The translations under genes were made by a program, and so were the position numbers. The notes beneath the pieces were generated by a model. That model ran no database searches, was not told the DNA's origin, and worked only from the letters and a program-made list of their open reading frames with translations. DNA of 64,000 bases, taken from an uncultured SAR86 cluster bacterium. GTDB taxonomy: Bacteria > Pseudomonadota > Gammaproteobacteria > Magnimaribacterales > Magnimaribacteraceae. Shown here piece by piece: positions 23,924 through 31,492 of the stretch. Every line of letters starts with the position of its first letter. Position 1 is the stretch's first letter. Location of the stretch: contig CABYCU010000003.1 in NCBI GenBank assembly GCA_902517565.1, positions 53,518-117,517 of the forward strand, in the 5' to 3' direction.

Positions 23924-25456
23924 ATGTTGAGAAAGATAATTAAAAGTATATTTATTATTTCTCTGGCTTTTGAAACTTATGCTGAAGTTAAAGAATTAAC
24001 CATATTGCATACCAATGACTTGCATGCACATCTTTTCCCTAGAATCGCTCCCTGGATCAGTGAATCTAGAAAGATTGGAGGTTTTGCCAATCTTGCAACC
24101 CTAGTAAAACAAGAGAAGCAATTAAATCCTAACAACATCCTAATTGATGCTGGTGACTATTTCTCAGGACCCTACATTAGTACCTTAACTGAAGGTGAGG
24201 CGGTAATTAAGTCTATGAACTTCTTGGGTATAGATGCGGCCTGCATAGGTAATCACGAGTTTGATCATGGATGGGACAATATGTTGGAGCAAATTCAGAA
24301 AGCTGAATTCCCAATATTAAACGGCAATCTTTTTTTTGAAGGAACTGATCAATTGGTTTGGGATAACCCCTACTTAATTCTTGAAAGGTTAGGACTAAAA
24401 ATAGGAATAATTGGTCTTCATGGAAAATTTGCCTTTTATGACACTATCAATTTTAAAATGACAGAAGGTATTGAAGCCAGAGATGAGGAAGAGTACCTCA
24501 GGAAATATATTGAAGAACTTAAACCTATTACGGATCTTATTATTCTTGCTGTTCATCAAGGTATGCCCGGACGGCAGTCTACCGTTGGCCTTACTGATGT
24601 AGAAAGAAATCTTTATAAAGATATTCTTCTTGCTAAGAATGTTCCAGGTGTGGATATCATTGTTACGGGACATGCCCATCAAGGTACAGAAAAAGCCCTG
24701 GTTTCAAATGGGACGATTATTGTTTCAACTAATGCTACCGCAACGGAATTAGGGAAATTGCAAATTAAATATGACACTGAAAAAAAGAGAATAGTTTCTC
24801 ACTCCAATGAACTCATAACTATATTTGATGATGAGTTAGAAGATGACCCCGACATGCTTCAAGAAATCACTTTTTGGCAAGAGGAGGTAGATCAAATAGC
24901 AAAAGTTCCCGTCATACCCTTAACAAAGAAACTTGTTAGGTCTTATGGAAAAGAATCCAATATGGGAAATCTATTTGCTGATGCCATTGAGTCATTTGAT
25001 GAAAGAATCGATATAGCGGTTGTGAACAGTGGAGCACTCCGACAAGATATTGAAGCAGGGACGATTACAAAAGGAGATCTAATTTCTGCTTTTCCATTCC
25101 CGAATACTGTTGTAATGACTAAGCTAAAAGGCTCTCAGGTTAGGAAGATTTTTAATCATGCTGCCGGTATGACTAATGGGATTTTACAAGTTTCAAAGAA
25201 TGCTAAATATTCATTTACCCCAAGAGAGAAAGTTAATGATATTTGGATTAAGGGTAAGCTAATAGATGATAATTCAGAATATTGGGTTGCGGCCCCCAAT
25301 TTTGTTACACAAGGTGGCGATGGATACTGGGAATTTCAAAATTCTATAGAATATCAAGATAGTGGTATCTTAATTGTAGATGTCGCTGAAAATTATCTTA
25401 AGAACAAAGACGTATACGAACCTGAATATGGAGAGAGAGTGCAAATTATAAGGTAA
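23924..25456 (+). CDS. Secreted bifunctional metallophosphatase / 5'-nucleotidase (UshA-like)
   Basis: Signal peptide; HTNDLH, DAGD, GNHEFD, GHAH; C-terminal nucleotidase domain (NSGALR, FPFPN, GGDGY). Confidence 0.9.
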   Translation: MLRKIIKSIFIISLAFETYAEVKELTILHTNDLHAHLFPRIAPWISESRKIGGFANLATLVKQEKQLNPNNILIDAGDYFSGPYISTLTEGEAVIKSMNFLGIDAACIGNHEFDHGWDNMLEQIQKAEFPILNGNLFFEGTDQLVWDNPYLILERLGLKIGIIGLHGKFAFYDTINFKMTEGIEARDEEEYLRKYIEELKPITDLIILAVHQGMPGRQSTVGLTDVERNLYKDILLAKNVPGVDIIVTGHAHQGTEKALVSNGTIIVSTNATATELGKLQIKYDTEKKRIVSHSNELITIFDDELEDDPDMLQEITFWQEEVDQIAKVPVIPLTKKLVRSYGKESNMGNLFADAIESFDERIDIAVVNSGALRQDIEAGTITKGDLISAFPFPNTVVMTKLKGSQVRKIFNHAAGMTNGILQVSKNAKYSFTPREKVNDIWIKGKLIDDNSEYWVAAPNFVTQGGDGYWEFQNSIEYQDSGILIVDVAENYLKNKDVYEPEYGERVQIIR

Positions 25457-25541: not shown

Positions 25542-27137
25542 ATGCAATACATTTCAAAATTAGTAATCTTCTTCCTGATCATTTTCAGTTTTAATCTAAT
25601 TGGGCACCAAGATGATGATGGTATGAAATATTCACCTGAGTTAGCTCATGCTCCTATGCCTCTTCCAGATAGAGTTGTTTTAACTTGGGAAGATGATCCT
25701 GCAACAACACAATCTGTGACTTGGCGGACTGATATTTCAACTAAGAAAGGAATGGCCCACTTAGCACTTGCTAATGCAAATGGCAGAGCATTAGAGACTG
25801 AAGAATTTATGGCTGAAACCACTTATTTCAAAAGCGATATAAATGAGGCTAACTATCACAGTATTACTTTTAGGGGACTGCAGCCAGATACGCTATACGC
25901 CTATAGAGTTGGTGATGGAGTCAATTGGACAGAGTATTACCATTTTAAAACTGCCAGTGATAGACCCAGACCTTTTAGTTTCATCTATTTCGGTGATGCT
26001 CAAAATGAGGTCCGAACTCATTGGTCTAGAGTATTTAGGGAGGCATTTAGGGATGCTCCAAGAGCAGCCTTTACACTGCATGCTGGAGATTTAATCGATA
26101 ATCCTTCATGGGATGCAGAATGGGGAGATTGGCATCAAGGCCCAGACTGGGTAAATGGAACTATTCCAGTAATAGCCACTCCAGGTAATCATGAATATTA
26201 CAGAATTAATCAAGGCCCAGAGTCAGAACGTTATTGGCAAACTAAAGAAGGTAAAACTATCGAAGTAAATATGACTGGTTTTGAAACTGAGTCTTCAGAA
26301 AAAGGTAGCATTTATAAGGTGTCATTTATTGGACCCGATGGTGACACTGCCTACTTCGAATTTAATGATGGAGGTAATATTATTCTTGTAGATGATCAGG
26401 TTGAGTCTATAACGGGGTTTAAAAAAAGTGACTTAATTGGTTCAAGTTTTTACTCTAAACCACTTTATGATCGACAAAGGGATCGTGGCACACCTGCTGT
26501 AAGCACTCATTGGCGACCGCAATTTGCCTTCCCAATTCAAGATGTTCCTGATGAAACTCTTAAAGAGACCGTTTACTATATTGATTATCAGGGTGTACGT
26601 TTTATTTCTTTAGATTCTAATAAATCCAAAGAAGCTCAAATACCATGGTTAAGAAAAGTACTGGAAGATAATCCTAATAGATGGACAATTATGACTTTCC
26701 ACCATCCCGTTTTCTCTCCAGGATCTGATAGAGATAATAAAGATATACGGGAACTCTGGAAGCCACTCATTGATGAATTTAAAGTAGATTTGGTACTAAG
26801 TGGCCATGATCATTCTTATGCACGAACTGGTCAGGTAGATACTGAAGATCTAGTTAATGTTCCAACAGGCTATCAACAGGCCTATGATCCTAAGATAGGA
26901 ACAGTTTACGTGGTATCTGTCAGTGGACCCAAGATGTATGGTATTACGAAGGGAAATTATGCTAAGAGAGTAGCCGAGAATACTCAGCTATATCAAATTA
27001 TTCATATTGACGATAAGAACTTAACTTATAAAGCTTATGAGGCTACGGGAAAACTTTATGACGAGTTCACGCTTGAAAAAAGAAATGGAATGCCCAATCT
27101 CCTTCTTGAAGCGCTCCCGCAAGAGAATAGAAGGTAA
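25542..27137 (+). CDS. Secreted purple-acid-phosphatase-like metallophosphoesterase (FN3-like + calcineurin-like domain) with ~90-aa insertion
   Basis: Signal peptide; YAYRVG FN3-like domain; GDAQ, AGDLI, GNHEY, FHHP, GHDHSY. Confidence 0.85.
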   Translation: MQYISKLVIFFLIIFSFNLIGHQDDDGMKYSPELAHAPMPLPDRVVLTWEDDPATTQSVTWRTDISTKKGMAHLALANANGRALETEEFMAETTYFKSDINEANYHSITFRGLQPDTLYAYRVGDGVNWTEYYHFKTASDRPRPFSFIYFGDAQNEVRTHWSRVFREAFRDAPRAAFTLHAGDLIDNPSWDAEWGDWHQGPDWVNGTIPVIATPGNHEYYRINQGPESERYWQTKEGKTIEVNMTGFETESSEKGSIYKVSFIGPDGDTAYFEFNDGGNIILVDDQVESITGFKKSDLIGSSFYSKPLYDRQRDRGTPAVSTHWRPQFAFPIQDVPDETLKETVYYIDYQGVRFISLDSNKSKEAQIPWLRKVLEDNPNRWTIMTFHHPVFSPGSDRDNKDIRELWKPLIDEFKVDLVLSGHDHSYARTGQVDTEDLVNVPTGYQQAYDPKIGTVYVVSVSGPKMYGITKGNYAKRVAENTQLYQIIHIDDKNLTYKAYEATGKLYDEFTLEKRNGMPNLLLEALPQENRR

Positions 27138-28176: not shown

Positions 28177-29523
28177 ATGTTAGCAAAAGCTTTTAGAAAT
28201 TTCATGATCAAGCGCACCATAAGTGCCAATCTCAGAAATCGAGGCATGAATACTTTTTCAAATTATGAAATCTTTAAAAATGTCCGTTTAAGTGCAGAAA
28301 CAAAAAGACAGGAAGAAAATAGACCTCATGAAATACTCTATTTTCATAAAGTAGATGATCCTTATTCACATCTAACAATTCACTATATCGACAAGATAAA
28401 ATCTTCTTTTGATGTAATTATTAAGCCTATTTTAGTTGGGGAGGAGAACCCAGAGGCAGTTCATGAACCTTCTTTGTACAGTATCTATTGTCTAGAGGAT
28501 GCTAAACGCATTGCTCCTTTCTATGATGTAGACCTGTCCGCAGAATCTTATCCTGACAAAGAATTGATAGATTATTCTAATTCAATTCTAGCATCTGTGG
28601 AGGAGGGAGATTTCGCTGAAATAGCCAAAAAAGTAAGTTCTGCTTTATGGACCGGAAACAAACAATTTCTTGCTGCATTAAAAACACAATATCCATCAAC
28701 CCAGAGTGAGGTTATAGAAAAATTAGAATTTGGTAACAAAATCAGAAACGAAAAAGGTTATTATTTTGGTTCTGCCTTCTACTATGAGAAAGAGTTGTAT
28801 TGGGGTGTTGACCGTTTACATCATTTGGAAGATAGACTCATTGATTTAGGGGTAAAGACAGATAGTACCAATGACTCAATTTGCTTTCCCAATTTAAAAG
28901 CACCTTTGACATTAGACTCAGAGAAAAAGATAAATCTTAGTTATTACCCATCTCTTAATAGCCCTTACACCTACGCTAGTGCGAAAAGAGTTAGAGAAAT
29001 CAAAGACGAGTATCCGGTTAATCTAATTACTAAGCCTGTTCTTCCAATGTTGATGAGGAAAATGACTATTCCCGATTACAAAGGAAAGTACATAATCTCT
29101 GATGCAGCTAGAGAAGCGAGGAAGTACGGTTATCCAATGGGTTCAATTTACTCTCCTATTGGGAAGCCTGCTAGAAAAGCTTATTCGTTATTTCCCGCAG
29201 TAGATGAGGCGGGGAAGGGATTTGAATATATTGATGAATTATTAAGAGCTTCATTTTATGAAGGAATAAATATTGGAGAAGATGACTACCTCCAGTCCTT
29301 AATAACCAATCTAGATTTAGACTGGTCTTTAATTAAAAAGGATTTGAATTCTAGGAAATGGAAGAAAGTACTGGATGATAATCTTAAAGATATGTATGCA
29401 GGAAATTGTTGGGGAGTTCCAAGCTTTAAAATAACTGATATAGATGGGAATAATCCCTTTACCGTATGGGGACAGGACAGGATGTGGCTCCTTAAAGAAG
29501 AAATTAATAAACGTTTAGGCTAG
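28177..29523 (+). CDS. Two-domain DsbA/GST-kappa (2-hydroxychromene-2-carboxylate isomerase-like) protein
   Basis: Repeated motifs DDPYS...YWGVDRL and NSPYT...WGVPSF...WGQDRM. Confidence 0.8.
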   Translation: MLAKAFRNFMIKRTISANLRNRGMNTFSNYEIFKNVRLSAETKRQEENRPHEILYFHKVDDPYSHLTIHYIDKIKSSFDVIIKPILVGEENPEAVHEPSLYSIYCLEDAKRIAPFYDVDLSAESYPDKELIDYSNSILASVEEGDFAEIAKKVSSALWTGNKQFLAALKTQYPSTQSEVIEKLEFGNKIRNEKGYYFGSAFYYEKELYWGVDRLHHLEDRLIDLGVKTDSTNDSICFPNLKAPLTLDSEKKINLSYYPSLNSPYTYASAKRVREIKDEYPVNLITKPVLPMLMRKMTIPDYKGKYIISDAAREARKYGYPMGSIYSPIGKPARKAYSLFPAVDEAGKGFEYIDELLRASFYEGINIGEDDYLQSLITNLDLDWSLIKKDLNSRKWKKVLDDNLKDMYAGNCWGVPSFKITDIDGNNPFTVWGQDRMWLLKEEINKRLG

Positions 29524-29527
29524 AAAA

Positions 29528-31492
29528 ATGAAGACACAAACTTTCGCACTCATAACTCTCTTAATATTAGTACCTGCTTGTTCTGATAAAAATGACAATA
29601 TTAAGTTTGTTGAAATTGAAGAGAAAGACATTTATGTGCAACCAAGGCCAGAACCTAATCCTGATAAAAATGCCTATTTTGGAGATTTACATGTACATAC
29701 TTCAAATTCATTTGATGCTTATACTTTTGGAACGATTGCTAATCCTGTAGACGCCTATAAATTTGCCCAGGGAGAAGCTATTCCCCACCCAACTGGTTAT
29801 AACATTCAACTCAAAAGGCCATTAGATTTTTATGCGGTAACTGATCATGCAGTATTTTTAGGAATCATTAAAGAAGCAGCAGATACAAGCTCTGAGTTCT
29901 CTAAATACGAATTCACTAAGCCGATGCATAACTTAAATGAGGAAGTAAGTAATAGTTTATTTTCTATCATTAAGCGTTCTGGCCTTTTTAGAGGTTTTGG
30001 AGGGGCGGCTCGTGAAGGTCTCGAAGATGGAAGTGTTGATAGAGAGCTTATAGAAAGTGTTGGCAAATCTGTATGGAAAAAAACTATAAAAGCAGCAGAT
30101 GATGCATACCAGCCTGGGATATTTACTACTTTCGCAGGCTACGAATATTCGTCAAGTATAGATCTATACAATAAGTACCTTCACAGAAACGTTATATTTA
30201 AAGATACAAAAAACCTCCCTGAAAGAATCTTTTCTAGAGATGACAGTCTAGATCCAGAAGAATTATGGAATTGGATGGATATACGCAGAGAGGAAGGAGT
30301 GGAAAGCTTGGCAATTCCTCATAACTCTAATATTTCTGGTGGAGCTGCTTTTTCTATGAGTGATTACAACGGCGGTCCAATTGATGAAGCCTATTTAAGT
30401 AAGAGATTACGTAACGAACCCTTAGTTGAAATAACTCAAGCTAAAGGAACTTCAGAAACTCATCCTTTTTTATCTAAAAATGATGAATGGGCAGCCTTTG
30501 AAGCTATAACTAATCATCCAGGTGAAAAGATTTTAACGAATTTAAGTGGAAGCTATGTAAGAGATGCTTATTTGCAAGGATTGACTCTCCAAGATCAGGG
30601 CAAACCCAATCCTTTTAATTTTGGCGTAATAGGTTCTAGTGACACACACGTAGCCGGTGGATCTTATACCGAAGAAACTCACTTCTCTAAGGTTGGTATT
30701 TTAGATGGTGAGCCATATCTTAGAGGTTCAGTTCCCTTTGATGGAATATACAGTTTAATAGCAAGGTTATGGCAGCCTGATAGCATACTTGAATTAGATG
30801 AGAAAAATTATCTTAGTTTCAGTCCGCGCTTAATTCGGTTTGGATCTTCAGGACTTGCAGGAGTATGGGCAGAGGAAAATACTCGAGAGTCTATTTATGA
30901 TGCCTTTCGACGTAAAGAAACTTTTGGTACCAGTGGACCTAGAATTAAGGTTCGCTTTTTCGCAGGTTATAACTTTGAAAATTCTAATTTGTATGACTCT
31001 AATCTCATTCAAGCAGCTTATTCACAAAACATCCCAATGGGTGGAGATATAATTCAAAAAAAGGATAAAATTCCTAAGTTTCTTGTATGGGCTATTTCAG
31101 ACCCACTTGGAGCTCCCTTACAAAGAGCTCAGATAATTAAGGGATGGCTTGAAGAGGGTGAGCAAATGGAAAAAGTATTCGACGTAGCTTGTTCCGATGG
31201 CCAGAGCGTAAATCTTCAAACATACAGATGTCCCAATAATGGGGCTGAGGTTGACAGAAACGACTGCTCAATAAGTCGCAAAACAGGCGATACAGAATTA
31301 AAGACTTTTTGGCAAGATCCAGAGTTAATTGATGGCCAAGAGGCTTTTTACTATGCAAGGGTTCTTGAGAACCCCACTTGTAGATGGTCAACCTGGGATG
31401 CTCTAAGAGCAGGAGAAAAGCCAAGATCAGATATACCAGTCACAATACAGGAGAGAGCTTGGTCTTCTCCAATTTGGTTATCAGTCAATTAA
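29528..31492 (+). CDS. DUF3604 lipoprotein (PHP-like metal hydrolase fold)
   Basis: Lipobox VPAC; GDLHVHT, AVTDHA, HRNV, IPHNSN, QERAWSSPIW. Confidence 0.85.
   Translation: MKTQTFALITLLILVPACSDKNDNIKFVEIEEKDIYVQPRPEPNPDKNAYFGDLHVHTSNSFDAYTFGTIANPVDAYKFAQGEAIPHPTGYNIQLKRPLDFYAVTDHAVFLGIIKEAADTSSEFSKYEFTKPMHNLNEEVSNSLFSIIKRSGLFRGFGGAAREGLEDGSVDRELIESVGKSVWKKTIKAADDAYQPGIFTTFAGYEYSSSIDLYNKYLHRNVIFKDTKNLPERIFSRDDSLDPEELWNWMDIRREEGVESLAIPHNSNISGGAAFSMSDYNGGPIDEAYLSKRLRNEPLVEITQAKGTSETHPFLSKNDEWAAFEAITNHPGEKILTNLSGSYVRDAYLQGLTLQDQGKPNPFNFGVIGSSDTHVAGGSYTEETHFSKVGILDGEPYLRGSVPFDGIYSLIARLWQPDSILELDEKNYLSFSPRLIRFGSSGLAGVWAEENTRESIYDAFRRKETFGTSGPRIKVRFFAGYNFENSNLYDSNLIQAAYSQNIPMGGDIIQKKDKIPKFLVWAISDPLGAPLQRAQIIKGWLEEGEQMEKVFDVACSDGQSVNLQTYRCPNNGAEVDRNDCSISRKTGDTELKTFWQDPELIDGQEAFYYARVLENPTCRWSTWDALRAGEKPRSDIPVTIQERAWSSPIWLSVN

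Follow-up and report, generated by a model that had tools for sequence, protein, structure and literature searches.

In a 64,000-nucleotide stretch of DNA from an uncultured SAR86 cluster bacterium (contig CABYCU010000003.1, positions 53,518 to 117,517; this whole stretch is called the window, and coordinates refer to it), one gene on the + strand (25542–27137) encodes an exported metallophosphoesterase resembling purple acid phosphatases (PAPs). Within its catalytic core, the enzyme appears to carry a domain derived from a PAS domain that has been circularly permuted and truncated. In the literature searched, such an arrangement was reported only for engineered proteins. The account judged slightly more likely than not is that of an exported dimetal phosphoesterase with a permuted PAS-derived insert that lacks the PAS helix Fα and may cover the active-site entrance as a cap or lid.

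The insert occupies amino acids (aa) 220–320 of the 531-aa protein (26199–26501). It follows the GNHEY motif (aa 215–219, 26184–26198), which contains the metal-ligating Asn216 and the catalytic His217, is invariant in the family and aligns to the GNHE of sweet potato PAP 1xzw. In the sequence, the insert lies six residues past the metal-ligating Asn and catalytic His, and 101 residues separate GNHEY from the HW(R)PQF motif, found here as STHWRPQF beginning at aa 321. A search of 1.84 billion cluster representatives (50%-identity clusters) returned 13,625 relatives, the best 150 of which were realigned to the query. Both flanks aligned in 136 of the 150, and the gap between GNHEY and HW(R)PQF was 25 residues or shorter in 130 of these 136 (median 11). 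Only 3 representatives among the best 150 of the 13,625 carried the same insert. The insert was present in 22 of 22 close homologues aligned, and in a search of 90% clusters, in which 6683 proteins were scored, the best 120 were all approximately 488–564 aa long, with alignments to the query that ran through the insert. Homologues number more than 6600, with lengths put at ~517–545 aa. The additional residues are thus real and specific to a subfamily, and that subfamily is large. A first-pass annotation of this DNA had noticed about 90 extra residues (26217–26486, corresponding to aa 226–315) grafted beside the metal site. The excess (101 residues versus the median of 11) and its closeness in sequence to the Asn and His residues were both confirmed, the motifs quoted there were found as written, and the proposed alignment of homologues with and without the segment showed that it is not standard across the relatives.

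Several other relatives had large inserts at the same loop. These were a 189-residue low-complexity stretch of Lys, Glu and Pro (P0128), a beta-rich insert of approximately 120 residues of the Rhodothermales type (P0143 and L054; L054:6580-6927) and an insert of 47 residues (L052; L052:6646-6786). They were rejected as kin of the insert studied here, being unrelated to it. Since unrelated inserts occur in the loop after GNHEY, this loop is a permissive surface site and an insertion hotspot in the family.

The second half of the insert (aa 269–315, 26346–26486) corresponds to the N-terminal region of PAS domains, which comprises Aβ-Bβ-Cα-Dα plus the beginning of Eα, with the motifs I..VD, TG[FY], EL.G and PL.DR. 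Two PAS profiles were used for comparison, one built from 29 sensory-box domains of other Gammaproteobacteria (profile 1) and one from a disjoint set of 24 PAS domains (profile 2). With hhalign, insert positions 45–88 aligned to PAS positions 17–61 of profile 1 with 96.8% probability (P 2.4e-10), and the second half reached 94.6% probability with profile 2; overall, profile-profile comparisons with PAS gave probabilities of 95–98%. The protein encoded in the window had sub-threshold matches to PAS_9 (19.6 bits, cut-off 27), PAS (17.1 bits, cut-off 22.6), PAS_3 and TIGR00229 (18.4 bits, cut-off 22.9), all located at aa 270–304 and at profile positions ~3–47. Among 56 insert sequences, 28 matched PF00989, 21 PAS_9 and 11 PAS_3, and no family other than PAS recurred in more than two members. 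Two orthologous inserts reached the PF00989 cut-off of 22.6 bits, L042 with 34.1 bits and L017 with 22.7 bits, and the second half of L042 matched PAS positions 15–45. A search of all Protein Data Bank (PDB) sequences with the insert profile returned nearly exclusively PAS and LOV chains, including DosP (4e-4), 3ewk, 3bwl, YtvA, BMAL1, HIF and LOV kinases. Matches to polyubiquitin in the same search were dismissed as an artefact of summed sub-threshold repeat matches, each with an i-E above 39. Judged by these profiles, the second half is PAS-derived beyond reasonable doubt, in agreement with the PAS N-terminal motif recognized in the first-pass annotation.

The first half (aa 226–263, 26217–26330) comprises three predicted strands that match the PAS strands Gβ-Hβ-Iβ, with a PAC-like motif (E-x4-T-K-[DE]-G). 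It aligned to PAS positions 86–116 of profile 1 and 82–114 of profile 2, which correspond to Gβ-Hβ-Iβ, with P values, taken alone, of 4e-4 and 1.8e-4, respectively. The spacing from E to K-D-G (E-x4-x-K-D-G) was identical to that of the PAS consensus. The observed score of 20.5 was far above 120 column shuffles of the first half (mean 8.3, standard deviation 1.9, maximum 14.3; z ~6). It was also higher than the score of any of 40 natural windows of 40 residues taken elsewhere in the protein, the beta-rich FN3-like domain among them (maximum 14.7); reversed sequences scored 7–8. In L042, the first half alone matched positions 55–90 of 103 of Pfam PAS_9 (E 0.003) and 68–101 of 113 of PAS (E 0.05). 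The evidence that the first half represents PAS G-H-I is modest, consistent and specific, and the PAC assignment made from the letters alone was retained on the basis of the in-register alignment in two disjoint profiles. The two halves are joined by a GPDGD turn (aa 264–268, 26331–26345), situated between predicted strands 36–44 and 50–56 of the insert. It would link what is the C-terminus of a PAS domain (Iβ) to its N-terminus (Aβ). Its Gly267 was conserved in 42 of the 56 insert sequences.

In canonical PAS domains the A-B-C-D half comes first; here the G-H-I-like half precedes it, and an alignment colinear with PAS arose only after the halves had been swapped. The swapped insert gave a single colinear hhalign alignment over PAS positions 17–116 (85 columns, score 65.8, P 2.5e-12), compared with a score of 55.9 in the native order. 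Controls in which the second half was combined with a shuffled first half scored 56.5 on average (standard deviation 0.86, maximum 60.2), placing the real swapped sequence at z ~11. The gain was replicated with the second PAS set (52.7 versus 43.3), as the first-pass annotation had predicted. In the swapped alignment, PAS positions ~62–85, comprising the end of Eα, Fα and the F-G loop, had no counterpart, and in place of the pocket-closing helices Eα and Fα only two short helices were predicted. The earlier proposal of a permuted PAS domain opened at the F/G loop is consequently kept for the reversed order of the halves and given up as a simple reopening, because the end of Eα and Fα is missing. 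The PAS sheet has the strand order B-A-I-H-G, all antiparallel, and the start of Aβ adjoins the end of Iβ. A chain that runs G-H-I-A-B through such a sheet simply meanders, and five residues are enough for the closing turn. Together, the alignments indicate that the insert is both a circularly permuted and an Fα-less derivative of a PAS domain.

Structure prediction supported the insert being an autonomous, confidently folding domain. Modelled alone with AlphaFold2 and a 56-sequence alignment, aa 220–320 reached a mean predicted local distance difference test (pLDDT) score of 94.4 and a predicted template modelling (pTM) score of 0.80, so that the disordered segment that would have spoken against the first-pass annotation was not obtained. 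The model contained strands at insert positions 10–14, 20–33, 36–44, 50–56 and 60–64, followed by helices at 68–72 and 76–79. The strand lengths fit those of PAS domains, in which G, A and B would be short and H and I long. Small bridges close to both ends of the insert suggest that the termini meet. Searching the ESM Atlas with aa 222–318 returned only clusters of its own metallophosphoesterases, at 0.80. In a full-length AlphaFold2 model with 22 close homologues, the insert was the most confident part and the core was poor (mean pLDDT 64), and a complex prediction of an insert-less core (L055) with the insert of a near relative (L044) gave no verdict (score 0.00).

Several results weigh against a permuted PAS domain beside the active site. 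The window's own protein fell below every Pfam and NCBIfam PAS cut-off. The hhalign probability of the first half was 35–49% in both PAS profiles, only 2 of 56 first halves matched Pfam PAS_9, and the first-half profile found three insignificant hairpin matches and no PAS chain among PDB sequences. A Foldseek search of the PDB with the insert model, a check suggested by the first-pass annotation, gave no match at E ≤ 0.001, and the sequential fold searches as a whole (Foldseek, VIA-align) gave no PAS chain. This is expected of sequential aligners faced with a permuted fold, yet it leaves the assignment without three-dimensional confirmation. Finally, with a poorly modelled core, the placement of the insert relative to the metal site follows from its proximity in sequence alone. 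The results on the first half would fit an alternative in which only the Aβ-to-Eα half is PAS-derived. The three leading strands would then have a separate origin, such as elongation of a loop, their likeness to Gβ-Hβ-Iβ would merely reflect patterns common to beta-hairpins, and there would be no true permutation. We consider this unlikely, although it survives better than the other alternatives. The two disjoint profiles agree on the G-H-I positions (P 2–4e-4), the score lies six standard deviations above shuffles and above 40 of 40 natural windows, the PAC-like spacing is identical, and the first half of L042 falls on PAS positions 55–90 and 68–101 in the curated models of Pfam.

A scan of species-representative genomes yielded 80 loci, 55 of which carried the insert (92–102 aa). 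The insert-bearing loci belonged to marine Gammaproteobacteria (K189A clade, SAR92, Porticoccaceae, Pseudohongiella) and to Opitutales (Pelagicoccus, Pelagisphaera, Opitutus); the other loci lacked it at ~60% identity in the core. In a phylogeny constructed from the catalytic core alone, with the insert columns taken out, all 56 insert-bearing sequences fell within one fully supported clade of 75 sequences. The 19 insert-less sequences of this clade were nested among them and included the single leaves L055 and L057 and a group of 14 Opitutaceae. The starred branches forced at least three gains or losses of the insert, and the most parsimonious count was six. The gammaproteobacterial sequences nested inside the verrucomicrobial ones. 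The simplest reading of this tree, given an inferred root and polarity of change, is that the insert was gained once, that marine Gammaproteobacteria received the gene later by transfer, and that the insert was lost cleanly and in frame several times. An Opitutus metagenome-assembled genome (G087) held both an insert-bearing and an insert-less copy. The insert thus behaves as a module that natural variants can do without.

In the window's own order, with genomes of 0.9–1.8 Mb, the gene was patchily distributed (15 of 61 genomes searched), and one of these genomes, G012, had an insert-less form. Three orthologues from this order contained one in-frame TAA within the match (G003:C1:967989-969539, G076:C1:69158-70708 and G068:C5:31948-32919); they may be pseudogenes, or the match may overrun the true end of the gene. 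A search of 41 genomes of the order (G000, the window's own genome, and 40 others) returned no canonical sensory-box PAS domain at E ≤ 1e-10, the best match in G000 having 20.7 bits (G000:C6:26383-26685). This indicates that the PAS-derived piece did not originate in the order, and the insert may be among the few PAS-like sequences of these cells.

We propose the following origin. An exported dimetal phosphoesterase of the PAP lineage would have acquired a compact domain of ~100 residues six residues past the GNHE metal-binding and catalytic motif. This domain would descend from a PAS domain of the cytoplasmic type and would now run Gβ-Hβ-Iβ, a five-residue turn, Aβ-Bβ-Cα-Dα and the first part of Eα, with the Fα region deleted. 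The most economical source would be a piece cut out of register across the boundary between two PAS domains in tandem, whose linker was lost afterwards. It would have arisen once in an ancestor of the Opitutales type, from which the gene passed to marine Gammaproteobacteria, and the insert would have been cleanly lost several times. Because the permuted order yields a five-strand meander, the domain could fold alone with its ends meeting, and could consequently fit into a loop.

As to function, the domain may act as a cap or lid at the active-site mouth that shapes the choice or access of substrates and sets the enzyme apart from insert-less paralogues. Given a PAS-derived domain, we put this role slightly short of an even chance. 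The residues conserved in the insert (R230, W232, G237, I240, V242, I280, V283, D284, T291, G292, L298, G300, P307, L308, D310, R311 and G316) largely coincide with the usual core and turn positions of PAS domains. One face of the sheet was hydrophobic, and the other was polar, variable and poorly conserved. A cap is favoured over a small-molecule sensor because one wall of the PAS ligand pocket is lost, no sign of a retained pocket was seen, and the permissive loop that holds the insert lies beside the active site.

The first-pass annotation had likened the insert to an engineered allosteric switch, in which the permuted PAS domain would bind a small molecule or cofactor, signal to the adjacent Asn and His and toggle the exported phosphatase. 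Sensing is the typical role of PAS domains, only six residues separate the insert from the catalytic motif, R230, D284, D310 and R311 are conserved polar residues, and engineered enzymes use PAS or LOV insertions in this manner (PMC5316958; bioRxiv 10.1101/2021.05.19.444876). However, the region from the end of Eα to Fα that forms one pocket wall is missing, the conserved residues coincide with structural positions of PAS and outline no new pocket, and catalysis appears independent of the insert as insert-less natural variants persist. In addition, the insert profile did not specifically match any ligand-family signature (LOV, heme or FAD) among PDB sequences. Ligand gating was thus not supported, conservation being purely structural, and we regard the switch as quite improbable. 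The same low probability applies to a natural counterpart of engineered domain-insertion switches, in which the insert, next to the dimetal centre, would let the abundant marine phosphatase exported by SAR86/SAR92-type bacteria and Opitutales sense a small molecule or the shape of its substrate, and would thereby gate the hydrolysis of organic phosphorus. Marginally less probable still is a module that mediates dimerization or binding of a periplasmic or outer-membrane protein or polymer and leaves catalysis untouched: PAS beta-sheets are common dimer interfaces, one face of the sheet is polar and exposed and the insert is dispensable in natural variants, but nothing in this analysis pointed to a partner, the gene neighbourhood is unconserved past the closest relatives and the exposed face is poorly conserved. 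We favour a cap or lid at the active-site mouth over both the switch and the attachment module.

The host enzyme combined an N-terminal FN3-like domain of purple acid phosphatases (aa 42–137, 25665–25952; PF16656, Pur_ac_phosph_N, 65.9 bits versus a cut-off of 30, E 5e-18) with a metallophosphoesterase domain (PF00149, Metallophos, aa 163–426, 60.1 bits versus a cut-off of 21.5), the match to which was split by the insert. The GD, GNH, H and GH.H motifs of calcineurin-like metallophosphoesterases were all present. The part of the core that follows the insert (aa 321–426, 26502–26819) contained the HHP (H387) and GHDH (H422, H424) motifs, identified by alignment to plant PAPs and invariant in the family. 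On the same grounds, six of the seven PAP metal ligands were present (D152, D183, N216, H387, H422 and H424). The seventh, the Tyr of GDxxY, was absent; the corresponding motif is GDLID (aa 182–186, 26085–26099) with D186 in its place, and this position is Asp or Asn across the family. With the Tyr replaced by Asp, the Tyr-Fe(III) chromophore should be missing. By its motifs, the enzyme is a PAP-like metallophosphoesterase that is not truly 'purple', and it may work with a metal pair other than that of purple acid phosphatases. Database names of family members were generic (CpdA, FN3 domain-containing), and one JGI record read 'PAS domain-containing'.

A Sec signal peptide was predicted at aa 1–21 (25542–25604) from the hydrophobic N-terminus, with an inferred cleavage site. 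The first residue past it, His22 (25605–25607), was invariant in 22 of 22 aligned homologues, lay at a junction of the AHE/AHD type and was followed by a conserved W..P..Y segment. His22 could be a mature N-terminal residue involved in metal binding or maturation.

The gene directly upstream (23924–25456) encodes another exported metallophosphoesterase, which has Metallophos and 5_nucleotid_C domains and a signal-like N-terminus of its own and is a 5'-nucleotidase of the UshA type. It was rejected as a conserved partner, since the adjacency was kept only in the closest relative, L001. Downstream (28177–31492), a protein of 448 aa, whose C-terminus forms a DSBA-like thioredoxin domain and whose long N-terminal half has no assignment, is followed by a DUF3604 protein (654 aa, 725 bits); DUF3604 also adjoins the phosphatase in L028 and L009. 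A promoter and terminator scan at the gene gave nothing above shuffles, and inspection by eye revealed no Pho-box-like repeat upstream of it.

The first-pass annotation knew of no description of this architecture, and neither the architecture nor a natural permuted PAS domain was described in the literature searched (coverage incomplete), in which only engineered permuted PAS/LOV domains and PAS insertions were found. A natural example, widespread among abundant marine and freshwater bacteria (more than 6600 database proteins), would mean that evolution reached the same solution as protein engineers. It would also offer a minimal, Fα-less PAS scaffold that folds with rewired termini. The enzyme is an uncharacterized exported phosphatase kept in streamlined genomes of 0.9–1.6 Mb, and its paired insert-bearing and insert-less forms constitute a natural experiment on cap domains and substrate range in marine phosphorus scavenging.

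The plant PAPs 1xzw, 4dhl and 6git share with this enzyme the FN3-like N-terminal domain and the dimetal core (GD, GDL, GNHE, H, GH.H), whereas here the Tyr of GDxxY is replaced by Asp or Asn and ~100 residues are added after GNHE. In sequence, the enzyme shares little identity with PAPs of solved structure (best E 1e-8, over a partial alignment). With canonical PAS domains (PF00989, PF13426 and the TIGR00229 'sensory box'), the insert has in common the motifs I..VD, TG[FY] and EL.G and the PAC-like E-x4-x-K-D-G followed by two long strands. It differs from them in that the halves are reversed, Iβ and Aβ are joined by five residues, Fα is missing and the host is an enzyme that is exported, whereas they belong to signalling proteins of the cytoplasm. 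A further parallel is the repression loop of ACP5, the mammalian purple acid phosphatase. This exposed element, placed next to the active site and between GNH and the following His motif, modulates the activity of the enzyme. The loop, which may correspond in position to the insert, is short, is removed by proteolysis and is not a folded domain. The closest parallels are engineered. In a circularly permuted LOV2 (cpLOV), the original PAS termini were joined by a four-residue GSGS linker (bioRxiv 10.1101/2021.05.19.444876), and insertions of PAS/LOV domains have been used to build switchable enzymes (PMC5316958). Like the insert, these constructs combine a very short linker (GSGS versus GPDGD) with the grafting of a PAS-type domain onto or into an enzyme. 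The engineered domains retain the complete pocket together with the cofactor and were opened at the Jα hinge, whereas the insert shows no sign of switching, lacks Fα, and is natural and widespread.

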